DNA of 38,166 nucleotides from a virus, in the IMG/VR virus record IMGVR_UViG_3300014039_000009, positions 1-38,166 of that record, one strand, 5' to 3'. The translations under genes and the position numbers were made by a program. The notes below the pieces were generated by a model, which did not search any database, was not told the DNA's origin, and was given only the letters and a program-made list of their open reading frames with translations. Numbering within the stretch: position 1 is the stretch's first letter; the number at the start of each line of letters is the position of its first letter. Below are positions 1,305-38,166 of this stretch, in pieces.

Positions 1305-1499
1305 AATCCAACTTTTATGCATTAGAGATTTACCCCACATCTTATAATGCAGGTGTTGATATCTTCTTTCCTCCAAAAAAAAGAGGTGCAACAATTGCTG
1401 ATTTTCATTATCGAGGTGCCTTTTTTATAGCCTTATCTTCAAGCGACAGCTATTGGCGACCCGTTTGTTAATTAAAAAAAGACAAAAGGAGTTTTCAAT

Positions 1500-2108
1500 T
1501 TGAAAGTTTTTGAAGCAAATATCAAAGATATAAAACCTTATCCAAATAACCCTAGAATCATAACTAATGAGGCAATAGAGAAGGTTGCAAACTCAATTAA
1601 AGAATTTGGAATGCAACAACCAATTGTTGTTGATAAAGACATGGTTATAATCGTCGGTCATACCCGATTAAAGGCTTGCGAATCTTTGGGCATGGGAACA
1701 GTTCCTTGTGTTATTGCAGACAATCTCTCCGAGGAGCAAGTTAAAGCCTATCGATTAGCCGATAACAAAACGAACGAATTTACAGATTGGAATTTAGAGT
1801 TACTTGATTTTGAATTAGAGGATTTATTTAAAGATAACTTCGATATGGAGCAGTTCGGATTTGAGCTTGATTCAACAGACGACTCTAAGGATTACGGCAC
1901 AGATTTTACTCTTCCTGACGGGGATAAACCAGAAATCTGTCAGATGACTTTTACACTGCATGAACAACAAAAAGAGTTAATAGACGAAGCATTAGGATTA
2001 ATTGGTGATAATTTTCAGGAGACTTTTGGTAATACAAATAAAAACGGTAATGCATTATACGAGGTAGTCAGAGAATGGGTAGAGCTAAAGAAATCGTCGT
2101 TAAGGTAA
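1500..2108 (+). CDS. ParB-like nuclease domain (ParB/Srx fold) protein
   Basis: TTG start preceded by AAGGAG. Motifs IKPYPNNPR and VGHTRLKA are typical of ParB N-terminal domains. Confidence 0.85.
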   Translation: MKVFEANIKDIKPYPNNPRIITNEAIEKVANSIKEFGMQQPIVVDKDMVIIVGHTRLKACESLGMGTVPCVIADNLSEEQVKAYRLADNKTNEFTDWNLELLDFELEDLFKDNFDMEQFGFELDSTDDSKDYGTDFTLPDGDKPEICQMTFTLHEQQKELIDEALGLIGDNFQETFGNTNKNGNALYEVVREWVELKKSSLR

Positions 2109-2791
2109 TACCTGCAAATATTGCAGTTCCTTTCGTAAAAAAACATCACTATAGCGGTAAAGTTGTCCCTAATAGCCAGCTCCATTTTGGAGCATTTCTT
2201 GACGGCAAACTTCATGGCGTCATGTCTTATGGTCCAAGCCTAAACAAAAAAGGGACAATTAACCTTGTTAAAGATACTGGCTGGAATGAATTCTTAGAAT
2301 TAAACAGGATGGCGTTTGATGATTATCTTCCTCGAAACTCAGAGAGCAGATGCATTTCTCAAAGTATAAAATTAATCAAAAAAAATGCGCCCCAAATCAA
2401 ATGGCTTATTTCTTTTGCAGATGGTTGTAGTTGTGGAGACGGAACTATTTACAGGGCGAGTAATTTCGTTCTAACAGATATAAGAGAGAATGATTCTTTG
2501 TTAATAGACCCTCAGACAGGCGAAAAGATTCATCATATTTCTTGTTGGCATAAGGGCATCAGAGATTTATCTAAGTTTAAACCCTTAAAAGGTTATCAAC
2601 TCAGATATGTCTATTTTATTGACAAATCCTACAGACAAAAATTAACAGTTCCTGAAATTCCTTTTTCTAGAATTGACGAGCTAGGTGCAGGCATGTACAA
2701 AGGCGAAAGAGTAACAGTCGAAGAACGACACGAACAAGGAAAGCTCACACTTGAAGAGAAAAACGAAACTAAAGAGGAATCTGAAACTTGA
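2075..2791 (+). CDS. Mom-like GNAT-fold acyltransferase (candidate DNA adenine-modification enzyme)
   Basis: The motif order FVKKHHYSGK ... FLELNRMA ... PRNSESRCISQSIKLI ... ISFAD ... GTIYRASNF matches my recollection of the Mom family. It overlaps the ParB-like gene by 34 nt. Confidence 0.6.
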   Translation: MGRAKEIVVKVIPANIAVPFVKKHHYSGKVVPNSQLHFGAFLDGKLHGVMSYGPSLNKKGTINLVKDTGWNEFLELNRMAFDDYLPRNSESRCISQSIKLIKKNAPQIKWLISFADGCSCGDGTIYRASNFVLTDIRENDSLLIDPQTGEKIHHISCWHKGIRDLSKFKPLKGYQLRYVYFIDKSYRQKLTVPEIPFSRIDELGAGMYKGERVTVEERHEQGKLTLEEKNETKEESET

Positions 2792-3234
2792 GCAAAAACT
2801 CCGCCTATCCCGAATTAAATAAAGCATCTTTCGAAACTCTTCTCCGATTACAATTCACACGAGAAGAGGTTCTTGTTTTTTTTGGGAAATCAAAAACGAG
2901 TCTAATCGAATGGGTTAAGAAAGAATATGAAGGAAGAACCTTTGAAGATGTCAAGCAAATGTGCACAATGCAGACACAAGTTAGATTGAAATCGACCGCT
3001 TTAAAAATGTCAGAAAAGAATCCTGCTGTTATGATTTTCCTTTTGAAATCAATTTGCCGAATGACAGAAGAAACTCCAGTACAGAAAGAGAACAACGATA
3101 AGAATGTTATATCTTTCACAAACTCAATCAAGATTGCAACTAAGGCTCTAGCCTCAACAGATAATAGCCCTTATATCGCGGGGCTACCAGAAAAGACAAA
3201 TAACAACGATAACGAAAATCAAGACCATGAATAA
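2788..3234 (+). CDS. terS: Terminase small subunit
   Basis: TTGA overlap with the upstream gene and position just before terL. It has an HTH-like N-terminus and the NPAVMIFLLKS motif typical of TerS. Confidence 0.7.
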   Translation: MSKNSAYPELNKASFETLLRLQFTREEVLVFFGKSKTSLIEWVKKEYEGRTFEDVKQMCTMQTQVRLKSTALKMSEKNPAVMIFLLKSICRMTEETPVQKENNDKNVISFTNSIKIATKALASTDNSPYIAGLPEKTNNNDNENQDHE

Positions 3235-4552
3235 AAAGACTCCCAAAAAGCATACTCGTCAAATAATGCAAATTCCTGAATGGAAATTCTCCCCGAGGCA
3301 GTTAATTTCTATGTATTGGTGGACAGACCCTCGATATAGTTATTGCGCTGGCATCATAGCAGACGGAGCAGTAAGAAGTGGAAAGACAGTTGCTCTATCT
3401 TTTGGCTTTTTGATTTGGTCTATGTCAAATTTTAATAACCAAAATTTCGCAATGTGCGGTAAAACCATTCAATCTTTTAATCGTAACGTCTTAACTGGCA
3501 TGGCGAAGATGTGTTTTTCTCTCGGGCTTTATATTCAGCATTACAAGTCCGAGAATTTGGTTGTAATTTGGAACTCAGACAGGAGTGTTGTTAATAGCTA
3601 TTATATTTTCGGTGGTAAAGATGAAGGCTCACAAGATTTAATTCAGGGCATCACTCTTGCAGGCTTACTATTAGACGAGGTCACTCTCATGCCAGAGAGT
3701 TTCGTTAATCAGGCTTTGGCTAGATGTTCTGTCACAAATGCTAAGGTATGGATGAATTGCAATCCCGAGGGCAATCAGCATTACATCAAGCGTCGATTCA
3801 TCGATAACTATAACAAGCTTCAATTTTTATACATGCATTTCACAATGAATGACAATTTCACACTATCTCCCGAGCGCCGAGAATATTACGATAGGCAATA
3901 TACAGGCTTATTCTATCGACGATATATCCTCGGAGAATGGTGTCTAGCCAGTGGCTTGGTTATGTCTTCTTTCAATCCTGATACAATGATTTACAACGAG
4001 GACGACCCCGAAGAGAGTTACACCGTTTCTTTTTCTGCAGGTGACTATGGCACAACGAATCCGACAGCTTTCTTGTGGTTAAGCTATAATGCAGAGAGAG
4101 ATTGCTTTGATGTTAGAGACGAGTTTTATTATGCCTCTCGACAGACAGAAATCCAAAAGAGTGACATTGAATATTGCGAGATGCTTATAGAATGGGTAAG
4201 AGGCAAGAGCATACAGAGAGCCTATGTTGACCCGTCGGCAGCATCTTTTGCAGTTGCTTTAAAACAAGCTCATGTTTTTAACAGGCTTGAAAAGGCAAAT
4301 AACGATGTTTTAGATGGCATACGTTGGACGAACTCTCTATTTGCCCTTGGATTATTGAGAGTTAATCGAAAATGCAAGAATCTAATTCGAGAACTTGGAG
4401 TTTACTCATGGGACGACGAAAAGAGTGAAAAGAGTGGAGAAGATTGTGTTATTAAGATTGATGACCATGCTGTAGATGCCTTGAGATATGCTTGTATGAC
4501 TGAAATTTATGGACGAAAGACACAGTATGGGCTGAAGCATATAGGCTTGTGA
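3227..4552 (+). CDS. terL: Terminase large subunit
   Basis: Walker A GAVRSGKT, Walker B LLLDEV, and C-terminal nuclease motif DDHAVDALRY. Confidence 0.95.
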   Translation: MNKKTPKKHTRQIMQIPEWKFSPRQLISMYWWTDPRYSYCAGIIADGAVRSGKTVALSFGFLIWSMSNFNNQNFAMCGKTIQSFNRNVLTGMAKMCFSLGLYIQHYKSENLVVIWNSDRSVVNSYYIFGGKDEGSQDLIQGITLAGLLLDEVTLMPESFVNQALARCSVTNAKVWMNCNPEGNQHYIKRRFIDNYNKLQFLYMHFTMNDNFTLSPERREYYDRQYTGLFYRRYILGEWCLASGLVMSSFNPDTMIYNEDDPEESYTVSFSAGDYGTTNPTAFLWLSYNAERDCFDVRDEFYYASRQTEIQKSDIEYCEMLIEWVRGKSIQRAYVDPSAASFAVALKQAHVFNRLEKANNDVLDGIRWTNSLFALGLLRVNRKCKNLIRELGVYSWDDEKSEKSGEDCVIKIDDHAVDALRYACMTEIYGRKTQYGLKHIGL

Positions 4553-14780: not shown

Positions 14781-17700
14781 ATGACTAATGAATTACAGGT
14801 TTTTATTAAAGAATTAGGAGATGCCTCTTGGACAGATATTACATCAAGAGTTGTTAAGGCTAATTTTAAAATTAAAGAGGGGTTCGGTTCTCTTGGTGGC
14901 TCCCTGAATCTTTCTAAATTAGATATCACATATAAGGCATCAGACCTTGCTGTAGCATCTATCTTTCATACAACAGCAAAGATTATCAGAATTAAAAAGA
15001 ATGGTGCTGTTATTTGGGAAGGCTTTACAGAAGGCAGTTCTACTGTGAACTCAACGGATTCTTCCAAATTGGCATGGGTTAAAGTTTCAGCATATCCATA
15101 TATTCATGCATTAGAAAAGATTGTTGCTCCTGCTGATGAGGTTTTCTATGATATTTTTATATCGAAACAGACTACCGACAAGACATCATTATTAGAGCGT
15201 CTTTGGTCAAGGATGATAGGGAATGCAGAAAGTCCATACAGAGAGTTTCTAAAAGATTCTGTTACAATTATCTTCCCAACAATTGAAGTGAAAAGACCAA
15301 TTGTTGTAATTGAAGAGGGTGATAATTATCTAACAATCTTCAATAAAATCTTAAAACAATATGGTTATGTTTTTAATCTTGACGGATTTATTGTTCGTTT
15401 TGTTCAACCTTTTGCTGACGATTATCGAGAGATAAAACAGATTCCATTTTCTAAAATTGAAACAAAACCAACTATAAAAACAGCTCCTTATAAATCAAGC
15501 TCTCGACCAATTATCACTATCTCTAAAATTATCACTAGAGATAATTGTCAGGTTTACTCTTTAGCACAGGAAGGAGAGAATGCCGAGCACGAGTTGTATA
15601 TCAATTCAACATTCCCAGAAGAGGGAGAATATGAAGACATTAAATACAGCAATCAAAATATAGAGACTGATAACATTTCTTTTTATTATGCAAAGAATCC
15701 GACTATGTCATATCAGGCTCGATACTCTGATAACTCAAGTGATGCTGTCCTTGCAGAAGAAGTAAAAGAGTTAAATGGCACTAGTGCTAAAGTCAAATTA
15801 AGAAATACAAGCACAGTTTTATCTTGTTATCTTAATCAGCTAAAAATTACAGCGGAAAAAGCTTATTTTTTGGACAAAACAACACAGGTCACTCCAACGG
15901 CATCAACTATCGGAGATAAGAAAGAAGAAACAACAGAATGGCTCTCTACTGAAAACGATGCTAATAATTACATTAATTTTTTGCTTGCAGAACAAAAAGC
16001 CGAAACATCATCTTTCACATTTAAATCTGAACTTCTAGGAAACGAAGTCCGTCCGAATAATTTAATAAAAATTGGAGATATTCAAGCTCTTTATCTTGTA
16101 AGAAACATCAGCACGGATATAACAACTAACGGAAAAGAGTATAGCTGTGTTCTTTTTGAATTACAAAAAAAGACTACAAAAGTTTATGCAATGAGAGGAT
16201 TAAAAAGAGTCGGTGCAAAAGGCAACAAGGGAGATAGGGGAGCAAATGGCTCATCCAATGCCCTTATCACTCTCTATAAGAGGTCTGCAACACAGCCTTC
16301 TAGCTTTGACGGTGGAGCTTTAACTTATACATTTGCAACAGACACTCTATCAGGCAACCTCGGTACTTGGAGTAGAAGCATCTCTAGTGGCTCTAATCCT
16401 CTTTATGCAATTACAGCTCGAGCATATGGCACAGGAGAGACAGATATAATCGACATCGGAGAATGGTCAACTCCAGCTATTCTTTCAGAGAATGGCACTA
16501 AAGGAGAGAATGGCTCTACTGTAGCTGTTATTACTCTATACAAGAGAGGAGATTCAGCACCTGCCACTCCTTCGAAGACTGTTTCATTCTCTTTTCATAC
16601 CTACACAGTCACAAACTCTGACGGATGGACATTAGGCATTCCTTCAGGCTCTGCACCTTGTTGGTCTATATATGCTACAGCAGTATCTGCAAATGGTGTC
16701 TCGGATACAATCGAGCCGAGTGAATGGTCTACTCCAATTAAGGCATTTGAGAACGGTGCTAAGGGAGAGAAAGGAGACACTGGAACAGCAGGCTCTTATC
16801 TATCTTTCTTTGTCTCAAGAATCCTTGTTGATTGCTATGCAGAAGGAGATATCATCGGAGATGAAAAGATTACATTTAATGCCCAATCAGACGGAGAAAT
16901 AACATTAGAAATAGATGCAACTCCAATTAAGACAGCAACAAGGCTCTTAGAGTATTCTGCTACTCCGGCTCAAGTTCTTGGAGATAAGCAATCTGTTTTA
17001 GTTGTTGCAAAAACAAGCAAGATTCAGCAGAGCTATACAATTTCTAGAGTTATCAGAAAGGGTTCTCTTTCAATTACTGCTGATAAGTCATCAATCCCTT
17101 TCTATGCTGATAATGTTCCACATTCTTCAGCAGATAAGATTACTCTTTCTGTCTCTGCTGTAAATTATAAAAATACTCCGAAATTGTATTTGAATGGAGT
17201 TGCTCAGACTGTAGAGAGCAAGAGTGACTATACATTTGATGTCTCACAGTCAGCATTTAAGAATACAGATACAATTGTTGCCAAGATAATATGTGGGCAA
17301 GATATTGATAGCATTATTCTTTCTAAAGCTCTTGATATTGGTTCTCTTACTCTTACAGCAGATAAAACAGGCTTTGAATACTATGCAGACAATGTAGCAG
17401 TTAATACAAGCGAAAAAGCTACAATTACAATAGAGCAACAGGGCTACTCGAAGATGCCTGATTTAATCCTCAACTCTGTAAAAACAACATACACATCAAC
17501 AGGGAACAAAGGCTCTTATTCTATCCCAATTACAGCTTTGCAAGACATATCATCTCTTGAAGTAAAGATTGCTAATGAAAAGGAGATGAAGGCTTTACAG
17601 ATAATCAAGACAAAGCAGAATCCAAGCATTATATTACAGGTCTCTACACCTGTTGTTGAATTTTATTATGATAATGTCGCAATTTCAGGCAATGTCACTT

Positions 17701-20700
17701 TAACGGTTAAATATTCAGGGCTTTTCTATGCTCCTCTCTGCAAGATTGGAACCACACAGGTTGCTTTATCATCAGCAGGAGTGGGCACAATTTCTATTTC
17801 ATCTTTTAAAGATGTTGATAGCCTCACAGTTGATGCTTATGCTCAGAAGAATCTTATTTATTCAGTCTCTCAGACTATCACAAAGACAAAGAGACCATTG
17901 AATTTATCTGTCGGAGCATCTGCAACTCAATTTAGTTATGACAGTAAAAATGCTGTATCTCCTAGCTCTATTACTCTAACCAACTATACAACCGGATTAT
18001 CTAATCCAAAATTGGTTATTCTTAAAGTTGGTGGTACTGCTAAGACATGGAGTGATACAAATACATTTTCTATTACTCCCGATATGATTACAGGCAGATA
18101 TCTCAATATTGAGCTTAGTTATGGCACTGAAAAGACTAGCATGATTATCACTAAGACCTATGACGGAAAAGCAGAGATTATACAGTATTCCAAGACTAAA
18201 AGTTTTAAAATCTATCCTGATGATGAATATAGCTTTACTTATAATGCCTCGGGCTTAACATACAACGGTCAAACATTTGTATGGACCATTACTTGGTCTG
18301 AAACAATCCCTGATATATCATCTAATGAGTATCTATGGAGAAGGTCAAGGAACTCTGAGACTGATGCTTGGCAGTATACTCGATTAACTGGCATTCAGGG
18401 AGATAAAGGAGAGCAAGGTGGTGGAGAGTATCTCGGTCATTACACAACTGCCCCGACAAAAAAGCCAAATGGAGATTCTATTGCAAATGGTGATTATTAT
18501 CTAAACACAGCTACAGTTGGCTCTCCTCTGCCTTATAGATACAAGAATGGTCAATGGGTTCTTATTACTACATCTGACAAAGACTGGTCACTAATAGCAT
18601 CTGCAACTATGGAAGATGTTAACAACTTTGGTGGTGCTCTTCTTTCTACATCATCTTATTATGCATTCTTTCAGCTCTTATCAGCACAGAAAGCTTTCGT
18701 GAACTCCTTAGGAGCACAGAATATCACTCTAAATGAAAATGGTCTCATACAGAGCGAAAACTATGAGTCTACCGAGGGTGCAGAGGGCTTTAGAATCAAT
18801 GCTGACGGTTCTGTCGATTTTTCTACAGGCACTTGGAGAGGTAGTTTTGCAAACGGTCTATCCTTTATCCCTGCAACTCACATGATTGCAAAAAAGACTA
18901 TGACTCACAAGCAAGTTTATCAAGCAATGAAAAAGGCAGGCATAGTATCAGGCATTTACAAAACTGCAGATTTACAAGCCTTTGTTGATACAGGAGCAAT
19001 TAGTGGGGAAAATGGTGAAAGTGCTCCATATACATCATCAGGAATCAATACCGGTAATGGTTTTGCTTGTCTCGATTATGCCCAGTCAGCATTAACGATG
19101 AATATTCCTCTTTTCACAACATTCTCGGGCATCTTACCAATCAATCCTGATTTGTATTTAATTTTTCATGGCACAAAAAATGGTAGTACAGTAACAAAAA
19201 ATGTTTACCTTGTTACAAAAACAATGCTTGCAACAGCTCAGTTTAATACATCAGAAATCTATGACTTTACTAGTTTAAAGCAATACCCTCAGTCAAGCTT
19301 GGTTAATTGTATTACAATTTCTGCAGATGATAAGCCTAAAGTTGTTTTCATTGGTGCAGTCGTAAATGGAAAACTGATTGCTCACGATATTGAAGCAGGA
19401 ACAGTCGGTCTCTACTCTTTTAATACAACAACAATGTCTACAACAAAAGAGGCTACTCTCAACTTAATATCATCATCTTGGACTATAGAGAGAGGATATG
19501 CACCAAGCTATAATTACCATGAGTTTACAGATAGTTCAGGCAAATACTGGGAGACAAGCCTTGTATCAGCTGATTTTAAGAGCTTTGCAATAAGTAAGAC
19601 TGCTGACTTAAAGACATACAGCGTAATCTCAACTTATACTACTGCATATACTTCTAACCCACCAATTCCTCTTGATGTCGTAAGAGTAGGCTCAAGAATA
19701 TTTGGTCAAATCTTAGAACAAACAACTGTATCTAATACAATTCATAACACTCTTTATTTTGCCGAGTATAACACGACAACAAAAAAATGGGATAGAATCC
19801 CTGATTCGTATTCTACTGTTGAAGATTTGGCATCAATAAATATTCCTTCTCTTTTAGTAAAAAATGGAGTAATTTATGGCTCAAAATCGGGTTATGATTT
19901 ATTCTCTTATAATCCGACAACAAGTGTTTTTGCCGACCTGTCCAGTATTTTAAAGACAGGCTTACCAACAACTGTTTCCTGTGACAAGAAGATTAAAGAA
20001 TTAGTTGAAGTTGTTAAGCCTCTAACTTTTGACTATGTAACAAACTATACAAATAATACTGTTAAATACTCTAAAACTAAACATTGGCAAAATCTAAGAG
20101 TGACCGGCATTTCATGGAGTACAAAGCTTAATGCTCTTATAATTTCGGCTAATGTGCACGAAAATGATGGCATTTATGCTCCACTATTTAACATTGTTTA
20201 TTCGTACGATATTACAACAGGCAAAACAAAGATGATTAGTCCTATCTTTGCAGCAATTGAGACAGAGAATACAACAGCTGAATTTAATCCGATTAACCCT
20301 TATGTGGAGAGTTCATCTATCTATGCAATTTCAGCAGGCAATTCAGTTCTTGTTTCAGAAATTCCAACAGCAAATGAAATGTCTTTCACTGTAAATAACA
20401 TCAAATTTACTGACCTTTTTGCTTTCTATAACGGCGAAAAAACTCTTGATTCTGTGCTATTTCCTACTCCTGCATCTGTGCCTCTTGGCATTAAATCACA
20501 GTTTCAGCTGTGGGCAAGCTTAGAAAAAGAGGTCCTTATATCTAAAGCTGTGGAATATGGAGATAACAGACTCTATAACACAACTGACACAACTCTGACA
20601 TTCCATTGTGCAGTGCCATTTGCACACGAAACCAAAATGATCATCAGAGAAAAGGCAGATGCTTATGAGATAATCTTGGGCACATATCGATTACTGGGTT

Positions 20701-20948
20701 ATTCATCAGGCATGTTCCCTTCATTTTTCGGACCAAACAATAAGGCTATGATGTCAATATTGAGATTTGAAATCTTTTCATCTGCTGATGCAGAGCCAAT
20801 ACTCACAGTTAAAAAGAACTCTGACGAAGATTTTAATGCAAGCTTTATATGGGATTTCCCTGCACAGCTGACTGTAGCAGAGGATATAAAAACAGTAGTT
20901 AAAGCTGATGTTTTTAGGGACAACATAACCATTACAAATAAATCTTAA
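14781..20948 (+). CDS. Giant tail-tip / baseplate-receptor-binding protein (2055 aa)
   Basis: It directly follows the tape measure. It contains short collagen-like G-X-Y runs, repeated fibre modules and four tandem ~93-aa repeats. Confidence 0.85.
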   Translation: MTNELQVFIKELGDASWTDITSRVVKANFKIKEGFGSLGGSLNLSKLDITYKASDLAVASIFHTTAKIIRIKKNGAVIWEGFTEGSSTVNSTDSSKLAWVKVSAYPYIHALEKIVAPADEVFYDIFISKQTTDKTSLLERLWSRMIGNAESPYREFLKDSVTIIFPTIEVKRPIVVIEEGDNYLTIFNKILKQYGYVFNLDGFIVRFVQPFADDYREIKQIPFSKIETKPTIKTAPYKSSSRPIITISKIITRDNCQVYSLAQEGENAEHELYINSTFPEEGEYEDIKYSNQNIETDNISFYYAKNPTMSYQARYSDNSSDAVLAEEVKELNGTSAKVKLRNTSTVLSCYLNQLKITAEKAYFLDKTTQVTPTASTIGDKKEETTEWLSTENDANNYINFLLAEQKAETSSFTFKSELLGNEVRPNNLIKIGDIQALYLVRNISTDITTNGKEYSCVLFELQKKTTKVYAMRGLKRVGAKGNKGDRGANGSSNALITLYKRSATQPSSFDGGALTYTFATDTLSGNLGTWSRSISSGSNPLYAITARAYGTGETDIIDIGEWSTPAILSENGTKGENGSTVAVITLYKRGDSAPATPSKTVSFSFHTYTVTNSDGWTLGIPSGSAPCWSIYATAVSANGVSDTIEPSEWSTPIKAFENGAKGEKGDTGTAGSYLSFFVSRILVDCYAEGDIIGDEKITFNAQSDGEITLEIDATPIKTATRLLEYSATPAQVLGDKQSVLVVAKTSKIQQSYTISRVIRKGSLSITADKSSIPFYADNVPHSSADKITLSVSAVNYKNTPKLYLNGVAQTVESKSDYTFDVSQSAFKNTDTIVAKIICGQDIDSIILSKALDIGSLTLTADKTGFEYYADNVAVNTSEKATITIEQQGYSKMPDLILNSVKTTYTSTGNKGSYSIPITALQDISSLEVKIANEKEMKALQIIKTKQNPSIILQVSTPVVEFYYDNVAISGNVTLTVKYSGLFYAPLCKIGTTQVALSSAGVGTISISSFKDVDSLTVDAYAQKNLIYSVSQTITKTKRPLNLSVGASATQFSYDSKNAVSPSSITLTNYTTGLSNPKLVILKVGGTAKTWSDTNTFSITPDMITGRYLNIELSYGTEKTSMIITKTYDGKAEIIQYSKTKSFKIYPDDEYSFTYNASGLTYNGQTFVWTITWSETIPDISSNEYLWRRSRNSETDAWQYTRLTGIQGDKGEQGGGEYLGHYTTAPTKKPNGDSIANGDYYLNTATVGSPLPYRYKNGQWVLITTSDKDWSLIASATMEDVNNFGGALLSTSSYYAFFQLLSAQKAFVNSLGAQNITLNENGLIQSENYESTEGAEGFRINADGSVDFSTGTWRGSFANGLSFIPATHMIAKKTMTHKQVYQAMKKAGIVSGIYKTADLQAFVDTGAISGENGESAPYTSSGINTGNGFACLDYAQSALTMNIPLFTTFSGILPINPDLYLIFHGTKNGSTVTKNVYLVTKTMLATAQFNTSEIYDFTSLKQYPQSSLVNCITISADDKPKVVFIGAVVNGKLIAHDIEAGTVGLYSFNTTTMSTTKEATLNLISSSWTIERGYAPSYNYHEFTDSSGKYWETSLVSADFKSFAISKTADLKTYSVISTYTTAYTSNPPIPLDVVRVGSRIFGQILEQTTVSNTIHNTLYFAEYNTTTKKWDRIPDSYSTVEDLASINIPSLLVKNGVIYGSKSGYDLFSYNPTTSVFADLSSILKTGLPTTVSCDKKIKELVEVVKPLTFDYVTNYTNNTVKYSKTKHWQNLRVTGISWSTKLNALIISANVHENDGIYAPLFNIVYSYDITTGKTKMISPIFAAIETENTTAEFNPINPYVESSSIYAISAGNSVLVSEIPTANEMSFTVNNIKFTDLFAFYNGEKTLDSVLFPTPASVPLGIKSQFQLWASLEKEVLISKAVEYGDNRLYNTTDTTLTFHCAVPFAHETKMIIREKADAYEIILGTYRLLGYSSGMFPSFFGPNNKAMMSILRFEIFSSADAEPILTVKKNSDEDFNASFIWDFPAQLTVAEDIKTVVKADVFRDNITITNKS

Positions 20949-29030: not shown

Positions 29031-29063
29031 TCTCCTTATTTACATATATAATATTATATATTT
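29031..29063 (-). promoter_or_regulatory. Promoter/5'UTR block, copy A
   Basis: In sense orientation it reads aaatatataatattatatatg-taaataaggaga and abuts the ATG at 29022. Confidence 0.55.
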
Positions 29064-29103
29064 CAAAAAGAGTCTAGCAATTTGTTATAAAAGAACGAAT
29101 TAT

Positions 29104-30490: not shown

Positions 30491-30524
30491 TCTCCTTATT
30501 TATACATATATAATATTATATATT
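30491..30524 (-). promoter_or_regulatory. Promoter/5'UTR block, copy B
   Basis: Same block as copy A with a 2-nt insertion; it abuts the ATG at 30483. Confidence 0.55.
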
Positions 30525-30582
30525 TAATATTTTGTCTACTCTTATCGGAAAAAATCAGACATTTTTTCTTAATTTTTTATGA

Positions 30583-37928: not shown

Positions 37929-38166
37929 ATACACATACAAGGATGTAATAATTGACCCACAAGACAAGAGGCTAAAAGGGGCTATTGGAAAGGAAGTTTA
38001 CTATGACGATAAACCCATACTTGCGGTACAGTATGCAAATCAAAATGTAAAGACTGGCACTCTGATAAGACTAAATAAAAAAGGCGAGCAGTTCCCTTTT
38101 TGTGTTCAACGAAGAGAAGCTGAAGATAAATTTAACTATGTTTGTATCATCATCAAGAAAGAACCC
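37921..38166 (+). CDS. 5' part of the junction-spanning CDS (continues at nt 100..321 of the circle)
   Basis: ATG at 37921 overlaps the upstream stop by 8 nt. EYTYKDVIIDPQDKRLKGAIGKEVY. The frame is open to the window end. Confidence 0.7.
   Translation, partial: MAEYTYKDVIIDPQDKRLKGAIGKEVYYDDKPILAVQYANQNVKTGTLIRLNKKGEQFPFCVQRREAEDKFNYVCIIIKKEP
38068..38166. repeat. Right copy of 99-nt exact terminal direct repeat
   Basis: Identical to nt 1..99. It lies inside a CDS whose frame continues into nt 100..321. Confidence 0.95.

Follow-up and report, generated by a model that had tools for sequence, protein, structure and literature searches.

Why would a phage place a gene for a ParB-like protein directly ahead of, and overlapping, a gene for a Mom-like DNA-modifying enzyme? 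The question is raised by a viral sequence of 38,166 nucleotides, IMG/VR record IMGVR_UViG_3300014039_000009, here called the window, in which two open reading frames (ORFs) encode a 202-amino-acid (aa) ParB-like protein and a 238-aa Mom-like protein. A first-pass annotation, made from the sequence alone, described the two as a candidate hypermodification and anti-restriction pair. Both ORFs lie where it had placed them, with an overlap of 34 nt (2075-2108), and every motif it quoted is present (KPYPNNPR and GHTRLKA in the first protein; KKHHYSGK, ELNRMA, PRNSESRCIS, ISFAD and GTIYRASNF in the second). The same two ORFs were called by independent gene callers on more than 23 public contigs with an identical Mom protein. 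The analysis presented here favors, at a probability of about 0.58, a two-protein DNA-hypermodification module in which Mom is the catalyst and the ParB-like protein a dedicated activator on double-stranded DNA (dsDNA), expressed with the packaging genes.

Two findings of 2026 are joined by this cassette: Mom as a solo enzyme that uses tRNA, and dioxygenases that need a ParB-like activator. Mom of phage Mu alone moves glycine from Gly-tRNAGly to the N6 of adenine in dsDNA, and a rearrangement then yields 6-NcmdA (Silva et al., Nat Commun 2026, PMC13219725). Phage thymine dioxygenases fall into ParB-independent and ParB-dependent subclasses, and a variable insert in the enzyme decides between them (O'Toole et al., PNAS 2026, PMC13229309). 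Neither of these papers, nor a 2025 survey of the ParB fold (PMC12704722), mentions a ParB-Mom pair. The first-pass annotation had held that the pairing has no established mechanism. This is true in that no paper on the pair was found, but precedents for a ParB helper exist in the 5mYOX dioxygenases (PMC13229309) and in DpdB/DpdA (PMC10164549), so the pairing is not without a mechanistic frame. By analogy, it appears to be a new instance of an emerging ParB-helper principle, and the results suggest a subclass of Mom, an anti-restriction enzyme until now regarded as solitary, that depends on a helper.

The Mom-family enzyme

The 238-aa protein is a Mom-family GNAT by sequence and by fold, as the first-pass annotation had proposed from motifs. 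It matches PF25680 from profile position 2 to 201 of 202 (E 1.9e-53, with 181.6 bits where the cut-off is 27.1) and Mom-like phrog_1384 (2.2e-47). The crystal structure of Mu Mom, 8BV8, matches the window Mom in sequence at 5.5e-25, with 33% identity. The AlphaFold2 (AF2) model (pLDDT 85, pTM 0.79) is nearest to the same structure in Foldseek (E 3.6e-20, TM 0.71-0.78, root-mean-square deviation (rmsd) 2.6 Å), and the next GNAT follows at 2e-6, fourteen orders of magnitude behind.

In Mu Mom, R111, S124 and R151 are essential and D149, H58, Y59, Y159, W48 and W181 are important (PMC13219725; Mu residue numbers here follow that paper and equal the GenBank/Karambelkar numbering plus 10). Mu H58, Y59, R111, S124, D149 and Y159 correspond to H25, Y26, R78, S91, D116 and Y126 of the window protein, all invariant in 78 Moms that are linked to a ParB gene. 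The essential R151 is replaced by C118, and this position holds C in 48, T in 30 and R in none of the 78 linked Moms. W48, at the dimer interface of the Mu enzyme, corresponds to N15 and is mostly K in the linked clade. The active-site loop of the clade reads SFAD[GA][CT][SQ]-C-G-D-G, in which C120-G121-D122-G123 are invariant. R151 is kept in several unlinked Moms and missing in others (Roseobacter, Polaribacter), indicating that it marks a Mu-like subgroup and not the whole Pfam family. Loss of R151 was considered as proof of a different chemistry, a proposal that is weakened by the unlinked Moms that also lose it. The chemistry of the modification, set down as unknown in the first-pass annotation, is still so for the window clade, in which R151 is lost, but is now solved for Mu (PMC13219725). 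No tRNA gene, including tRNA-Gly, was found in the phage window, so a host tRNA would serve Mom if the enzyme is tRNA-dependent.

Two further regions distinguish the linked Moms. In Mu Mom a helix-turn-helix (HTH)-like insertion is indispensable, and in the published model R151 adjoins both the tRNA CCA end and the flipped adenine (PMC13219725). This insertion, between the last core strands, has 22 aa in the window Mom versus 31 in Mu; linked Moms have 22-27 aa, or 46 aa in one subgroup, and unlinked Moms 30-37 aa. A shortened insertion as a universal trait of linked Moms is ruled out by the 46-aa subgroup; the insert is re-modelled. The second region is a C-terminal tail with the consensus [IL]PF-x-I[DE]-x-GAGMYKG, found by a strict pattern in 73 of 79 linked Moms and as near-variants in the rest. 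One of the near-variants belongs to the linked Mom of Psychrobacter phage Y8A, although that protein shares only 50% identity. Mu Mom, six other unlinked Moms and the divergent tandem paralogs lack the tail. AF2 modelled the tail region with pLDDT ~74-93.

The ParB-like protein and its C-terminal domain

The 202-aa protein matches PF02195 ParB_N (E 1.9e-11; 44.3 bits against 26.3) and ParB-like phrog_620 (2.8e-51), in agreement with its first-pass description as a stand-alone ParB N-domain protein, and 6187 homologs of it were recovered. A nucleotide-binding domain (NBD, residues 1 to ~95) is followed by a helical acidic linker to ~125 and a C-terminal domain (CTD) of residues 128-202. The AF2 model is confident for residues 1-125. 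Its top Foldseek match is the CDP/CTPgS-bound ParB 6SDK (E 5.9e-7, rmsd 2.6 Å), and other close neighbors are 7BM8, 7BNK, Noc and KorB (E ~1e-6, rmsd 2.6-2.8 Å); pNOB8 ParB (5K5D), PadC, sulfiredoxin and a serine kinase rank lower. The word nuclease, which the first-pass annotation had attached to this protein, does not fit: the closest structures are nucleotide-bound ParB CTPase domains and nothing indicates nuclease activity.

Conservation was scored in 64 and 16 family members, and the protein was aligned to ParB of Bacillus subtilis and Helicobacter pylori, with residue roles taken from PMC13229309. Conserved positions of the N-domain are N17, R19, S32, G53-H54-x-R56 (Box II) and D88-N89 (the Box III position). 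Box II reads G53-H-T-R56-L-K-A59; G53 and N89 are invariant and R56 is 98% conserved. The protein is not a partition ParB, because a Pfam search detected no HTH, ParB_C (the canonical ParB C-domain) or other recognized nucleic-acid-binding domain, no parA was found in the operon, and the TIGR00180 score of 52.7 is below the cut-off of 58.45.

The CTD has the signature F-LPDGDK..Q-TFTL..Q..I..FGN-N-NGNALY-V..W, with G141, L153, Q157, N178, N180, G183, N184 and W193 invariant. Its conservation exceeds that of the ParB domain, and members with very divergent N-domains have it nearly unchanged. Profile searches of Pfam, PHROG and PDB gave no match to the CTD, and the 75 residues appear to form a previously undescribed domain. 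An exhaustive HMMER search of 1.84 billion representatives recovered 360 CTD clusters (50% clustering), and among these 360 representatives the CTD nearly always ends a protein of ~190-215 aa. The idea of a ribbon-helix-helix fold (strand QMTFTL plus two helices) was not sustained; in the AF2 monomer the domain consists of only two low-confidence helices, and, as noted, it has no relative in PDB, Pfam or PHROG.

A few CTD proteins depart from the usual architecture. CTD-only proteins of 72-98 aa (P0252, P0266, P0302, P0303, P0311, P0318, P0334 and P0348) begin with Met just ahead of the DFG-DF-LPDGDK motif, and are either genuine stand-alone CTD genes or products of a split ParB. P0308 (453 aa) has an N6_N4 methylase, ParB_N and the CTD in a single polypeptide, either a real three-domain fusion or a merge made in gene calling. 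A real fusion would mean that one ParB serves a methylase as well as Mom.

Linkage of ParB and Mom

The linkage of the two genes holds from either side. The Mom clade comprises more than 8000 proteins in metagenomes. Among the best 80 of 314 IMG/VR relatives of the window Mom, a full-length ParB homolog (query ~2-198, E 1e-20 to 1e-71) lies directly upstream in every locus with upstream DNA; the two exceptions are both contigs that start inside the cassette. A search anchored on ParB, which used the motif [GT]NxNx[ND]GNA[LI], recovered more than 565 relatives in IMG/VR, and Mom is immediately downstream in 79 of 79 ParB-anchored loci. All 128 distinct ParB-to-Mom junctions in related loci overlap, by 1, 22, 25 or 28 nt. 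This pairing is far beyond chance and constitutes an obligate two-way linkage. The arrangement varies in that ParB-Mom-Mom, ParB-ParB-Mom, and ParB followed by a divergent Mom and a Mom also occur.

The first-pass annotation had placed the pair immediately before terS. The pair indeed precedes terS and terL, and this position is conserved ahead of several TerL families. TerL is the nearest large downstream ORF in almost all of 74 loci; a ParB_N-N6_N4 methylase takes this place in six and a PAPS reductase in one. A small ORF occupies the terS position in most related loci. At least five unrelated TerL families follow the cassette (Terminase_6N, Terminase_3, TerL_ATPase, GpA and T7-type). The cassette thus keeps its place at the head of the packaging operon but is not tied to one terminase.

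Carriers span several phyla and include genomes, prophages and metagenome-assembled genomes (MAGs) of Treponema, Clostridia, Eubacteriales, Bacilli and Leyella stercorea. Of 50,697 isolated phage genomes, only that of Psychrobacter phage vB_PmaS_Y8A has the ParB CTD, and this single cultured carrier explains why the module stayed unstudied. Thus a large Mom clade resides almost only in uncultured phages, with thousands of metagenomic proteins set against one isolated phage. In Y8A (OQ059336; cassette at L001 4397-5654) ParB is ORF16, the Mom linked to it is ORF17, annotated as hypothetical protein, and a second, unlinked Mom is ORF69 (record 39393-40157), annotated as Mom. The published description of Y8A takes its ParB for a chromosome-partition protein.

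Variation within the cassette was also observed. Tandem Mom pairs follow one ParB in L014, L015, L017, L020, L024, L030-L035, L039, L040, L046 and L063, and further tandem loci are L036, L037, L056, L057, L059, L073 and L074. One tandem group begins with a very divergent Mom (E ~1e-17), whose loop reads THAGGCKNDCG and which lacks the GAGMYKG tail. Tandem Moms may make two adenine modifications, or have two sequence specificities, served by one ParB. ParB is split in two frames (query 1-46 and 49-198) in L002 (5434-6022), L003 (1032-1620) and L004 (312-900), three independent assemblies of Leyella stercorea and related contigs in which Mom is intact at 74% identity; L022 and L084 have similar splits. 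The split represents either a fixed frameshift, leaving a protein of truncated NBD and CTD, or programmed frameshifting.

Moms without ParB and ParB domains without Mom

Seven unlinked Moms served for comparison, those of Mu and of phages of Enterococcus, Roseobacter, Arthrobacter, Elizabethkingia, Polaribacter and Porphyromonas. No ParB is annotated near any of the seven, and a search with a threshold as loose as E<=1 detected none in the surrounding ~3 kb.

When one genome per species was scanned, 72 relatives were recovered that have only the N-domain. These share the N-terminal ~125 residues with the window ParB at 50-63% identity, closer than many Mom-linked ParBs are to one another, and no Mom was found within 3.5 kb of any of the 72. 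They run into an N6_N4 methylase (30 of 58 scanned), a D12 methylase or DUF4417 (4 of 58), or are short stand-alone proteins. The first-pass statement that the ParB domain is usually fused to phage methyltransferases agrees with this result, as the closest N-domain relatives are joined to phage or prophage N6/N4 DNA methylases. Because N-domain relatives without the CTD are never beside Mom, the N-domain is a generic module and it is the CTD that tracks Mom. Two CTD-bearing ParBs lack a Mom (L180 3483-4103 and L197 137-556, both on MAG contigs with a methylase upstream and a portal gene directly downstream). Their CTD motifs are degenerate, LPDGDK having become LTTKTN and NKNGNAL having become NHFGNAL, and each looks like a decaying remnant left after loss of Mom.

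DUF4417 recurs in these phages, in some cases joined to this ParB N-domain and in others encoded by a gene of its own in the head module (L002 10739-11416, L003 6388-7014). It is known as a phage-enriched ParB fusion partner (PMC12704722) and may be another DNA modifier served by ParB.

Comparison with known systems

ParB-TerL loci with methylases and TET/JBP are reportedly described in papers by Iyer and Aravind. No literature description of the ParB-Mom pair was found; a prior mention in that ParB-TerL work is possible. ParB genes beside terminase genes are a recognized phage locus with a predicted packaging role (PMC4738411).

Mu Mom and the window Mom share family and fold, the residues H58, Y59, R111, S124, D149 and Y159, and placement as a late gene. 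In both phages the start of mom is overlapped by a small upstream gene, and the role, predicted in the case of the window, is protection of DNA from restriction. Unlike window mom, which is preceded by ParB, Mu mom is preceded by the Zn-finger translational activator Com. Mu Mom has R151 and W48, whereas the window clade lacks both and has the CGDG loop and the extra GAGMYKG tail. Mu mom lies at the genome end and window mom ahead of the terminase genes.

The closest parallel to the proposed partnership is 5mYOX176 with ParB176, in which a small phage ParB composed of NBD and CTD stands beside a post-replicative base modifier, as in the window. ParB176 has no DNA-binding domain; both of its domains are required by 5mYOX176, on dsDNA only, and modelling brings the C-termini of the two proteins together, although no stable complex was seen (PMC13229309). 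The conserved N14/R16/S29/R56 of ParB176 and N17/R19/S32/R56 of the window ParB have near-identical numbering. Like the 5mYOX family, Moms divide into proteins with and without a ParB partner that differ in a variable insert; dependence on the partner has been demonstrated for 5mYOX and is inferred for Mom. The enzymes themselves differ, 5mYOX176 being an Fe/2-oxoglutarate dioxygenase acting on thymine and the window Mom a GNAT acyltransferase predicted to act on adenine. The window CTD has a signature of its own, FGN-N-NGNAL.

DpdB is a ParB-fold ATPase whose ATP hydrolysis is required by DpdA (PMC10164549). As proposed for ParB-Mom, a ParB-fold NTPase there supports a base modifier on dsDNA, with no stable complex detectable (PMC10164549). 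DpdB and the window ParB have no sequence relationship beyond the fold; DpdB has ~400 aa, a DGQQR motif and a large helical C-domain and belongs to a cellular, restriction-modification (R-M)-like 7-deazaguanine system that works by transglycosylation. The 2025 survey found the ParB fold fused to phage methylases and binding CTP, ATP or GTP (PMC12704722). ParB_N-N6_N4 methylase fusions (PF02195+PF01555) resemble the window ParB across N-domain and acidic linker (residues 1-124, 50-63% identical) and the cassette in their niche near the terminase, and in them too a ParB module is inferred to serve a DNA modifier. In the known fusions the methylase is joined covalently after the linker, whereas the window ParB has a 75-aa CTD and its enzyme is a separate, overlapping gene. 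The ParB CTPase clamps (Spo0J 6SDK, Noc, KorB) share with the window ParB the N-domain fold (rmsd 2.6-2.8 Å over ~130 columns), Box II G-x-x-R and the Box III N. Unlike the clamps, the window protein has no HTH/parS-binding domain, ParA partner, ParA-binding motif, canonical C-terminal dimerization match or hydrolysis Q/E.

A proposed activator for Mom and the alternatives

In the favored reading, and by homology with Mu Mom, the enzyme would acylate adenines of duplex phage DNA at N6, most likely with an aminoacyl group donated by a charged tRNA; DNA so modified would be refractory to host restriction. The ParB-like protein would activate Mom either by keeping it on the duplex or by priming the DNA, and nucleoside triphosphate (NTP) may control this step. 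The NBD would be a generic, possibly nucleotide-regulated, DNA-engaging module and the CTD the Mom-specific element. A role as activator is proposed because of the precedents set by the ParB-dependent 5mYOX, DpdB/DpdA and the ParB-methylase fusions. The linked Moms have co-signatures in their CGDG loop, insertion and tail, and the loop and tail point to protein-protein or shared-substrate co-adaptation. Indirect support for a dependence of Mom on ParB comes from the two-way linkage and from the decay of the CTD after loss of Mom. From the coupled order ParB-Mom-TerS-TerL it is likely that both proteins are made together and late, and the DNA would be modified just before or during packaging.

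Several points weigh against this reading. In vitro, Mu Mom is active on its own (PMC13219725), indicating that a helper is not intrinsically needed by the Mom family. NTP control of Mom is doubtful, since 5mYOX NTP-motif mutants stayed functional (PMC13229309), and residues for CTP hydrolysis are changed in the window ParB (Q52 and E93 of M. xanthus ParB correspond to N17 and H54). The CTD is modelled by AF2 at low confidence (pLDDT 43-66). No ParB-Mom or CTD-Mom fusion was found among 150 of the 360 CTD representatives or among the top 120 Mom homologs, the long outliers in the CTD listing being ParB or methylase-plus-ParB proteins, and physical contact between ParB and Mom thus has no 'Rosetta stone' support. 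With R151 lost, the donor or the product may differ from that of Mu, and a few R151-less members could be inactive. Finally, adjacency alone cannot separate an activator from a regulator or an antagonist.

Four rival explanations were considered, each of them weaker than the activator reading. The ParB/Srx-fold protein could be a DNase acting on unmodified host or competitor DNA, with Mom as the protector in an R-M-like pair. Some ParB/Srx members, namely Osa, RK2 ParB and pNOB8 ParB (5K5D), nick or degrade DNA (cited in PMC12839542), and 5K5D is among the structural matches; Aravind's group reads the Mom-restriction endonuclease fusions of jumbo phages in this way (PMC7824862), and strict co-occurrence is expected of a toxin/protector pair. 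A DNase is nevertheless unlikely, given that the best structural neighbors are CTPase ParBs and not nucleases, that no recognizable metal-dependent nuclease motif was identified, and that the same N-domain is fused directly to methylases, where no separate protector logic is needed. Moreover, ParB persists without Mom in L180 and L197, which would be intolerable for a toxic nuclease, though the CTD has decayed there. A role for ParB as a regulator of mom expression or activity, curbing a toxic enzyme rather than aiding catalysis, has analogs in Mu Com, the product of a small gene that overlaps the start of mom and controls its translation, and in DndB, a ParB-fold repressor of a DNA-modification operon. 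Mom is tightly regulated and harmful to the host (PMC7261163), and a palindrome follows the ParB stop in the 5' end of window mom (2112-2126; CTGCAAATATTGCAG). However, homologous N-domains are covalently fused to methylases and so act at the protein level beside an enzyme, the protein has no HTH or other recognized nucleic-acid-binding domain, translational coupling gives co-production rather than prior control, and the tail and loop co-signatures of Mom favor protein-protein or shared-substrate co-adaptation. Regulation as the main function is likewise improbable.

It is quite improbable that ParB is a packaging factor, marking pac sites or assisting the terminase, with only a positional relation to Mom. 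ParB-terminase neighborhoods are a recognized phage locus with a predicted role in packaging (PMC4738411), terminases co-occur with 5mYOX/ParB loci, and the cassette is nearly always directly 5' of terS/terL. Yet the CTD-bearing ParB tracks Mom (79/79) and not one TerL family, with at least five unrelated TerL types; ParB and Mom remain contiguous even when a methylase, a PAPS reductase or a second Mom separates the pair from terL; and N-domain-only relatives occur near terminases without Mom and without the CTD. Finally, a ParB/Srx protein could be a small-molecule phosphotransferase, similar to SerK or sulfiredoxin, that activates an acyl or amino-acid donor and so bypasses charged tRNA. SerK and Srx structures are significant neighbors (5X0B 4.7e-4, 6KY4 1.7e-4), there is a weak NCBIfam SerK match, the hydrolysis residues of CTPase ParBs are replaced, and linked Moms lack R151, which in the Mu model is next to the tRNA CCA end. 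These matches span no more than ~82-87 columns and are much weaker than those to ParB CTPases, some unlinked Moms (Roseobacter, Polaribacter) lack R151 as well, and no SerK-equivalent substrate-binding domain is present, making this function very unlikely.

A more specific form of the activator reading is tentative and, with all its parts taken jointly, rather unlikely. It sees the pair as a nucleotide-gated 'writer on a clamp', in which a ParB dimer would close round or open dsDNA and, with Mom docked through the CTD and the GAGMYKG tail, move the enzyme along the concatemer in front of the terminase. The donor would be new, either another aminoacyl-tRNA or a non-tRNA acyl donor, and the adduct other than 6-NcmdA; a different donor is suggested because the active-site loop is rebuilt, with R151 lost and CGDG invariant. 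If true, a new DNA hypermodification would be widespread among phages of the gut and the environment.

If the dependence of Mom on its activator is real, ParB-fold helpers would be a general route onto the duplex for a dioxygenase, a transglycosylase, a methylase and a GNAT. The CTD and the Mom tail would then be tractable surfaces for the mechanism of duplex loading, and the product would possibly be a new adenine adduct that bears on restriction evasion, sequencing artefacts in the gut virome and enzyme tools.

Genome context and other features

The window ends in an exact 99-bp direct repeat (1-99 and 38068-38166). Such identical ends indicate a circularly closed assembly, and the window is therefore a complete phage genome of 38,067 bp. 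The phage is a temperate siphovirus; its genes encode an integrase, a repressor-like regulator, a RecE-like exonuclease, RusA, a tape-measure protein and a major capsid protein. No nucleotide similarity to isolated phages was found. The TTG start of terS overlaps the TGA stop of mom (cTTGAg), terL overlaps terS by 8 nt, and an SPP1-type portal gene follows terL. These successive overlaps indicate that the genes for ParB, Mom, TerS and TerL are translationally coupled as a single unit, with which the packaging module begins. The features of the cassette are collected in Table 1.

Table 1. Positions of the ParB-Mom cassette and adjacent packaging genes in the window
Feature	Position	Strand	Basis or remark
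Shine-Dalgarno AAGGAG	1486-1491	+	8 nt 5' of the ParB-like TTG start; read from sequence
ParB-like accessory protein, 202 aa, TTG start	1500-2108	+	PF02195, phrog_620, AF2, Foldseek
ParB N-terminal (CTPase-fold) domain and acidic helical linker, residues 1-125	1500-1874	+	Conservation, ParB alignment
Mom-linked CTD, residues 128-202	1881-2105	+	Conserved motifs; no known-family match
Overlap of ParB 3' end and Mom 5' end, 34 nt	2075-2108	+	Translational coupling
Mom-family GNAT, 238 aa, ATG start; predicted DNA adenine-N6 acyl/aminoacyl transferase	2075-2791	+	PF25680, 8BV8
Active-site loop SFADGCSCGDG, Mom residues 113-123	2411-2443	+	Column counts, linked versus unlinked Moms
Clade-specific C-terminal tail motif IPFSRIDELGAGMYKG, Mom residues 195-210	2657-2704	+	Pattern counts, model
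Probable terS, TTG start	2788-3234	+	phrog_606, E 8e-4 (weak)
terL (PBSX family)	3227-4552	+	TIGR01547, E 7.3e-56

The palindrome at 2112-2126 (CTGCAAATATTGCAG) is perfect, with the arms CTGCAA and TTGCAG around ATA, and begins 4 nt past the ParB stop. It may act in translational control, much as the Com-dependent hairpin does in Mu mom. A further hairpin is present at 2179-2193, and 551-567 was also noted among the palindromes.

Directly 5' of the cassette, a 185-aa ORF (747-1304, +) has no match in Pfam or PHROG and is kept in all contigs of the phage. An ORF of 2055 aa (14781-20948, +), directly 3' of the tape-measure gene, also has no Pfam or PHROG match and presumably encodes a giant tail, host-recognition or central-fiber protein of an undescribed family. 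A 36-nt AT-rich direct repeat, TACATATATAATATTATATATTT, occurs at 29041-29076 and 30503-30538 in copies that are 83% identical. The repeats flank divergent small genes between the integrase and the repressor-like gene, and may represent copies of an operator or promoter that belongs to the lysogeny switch.

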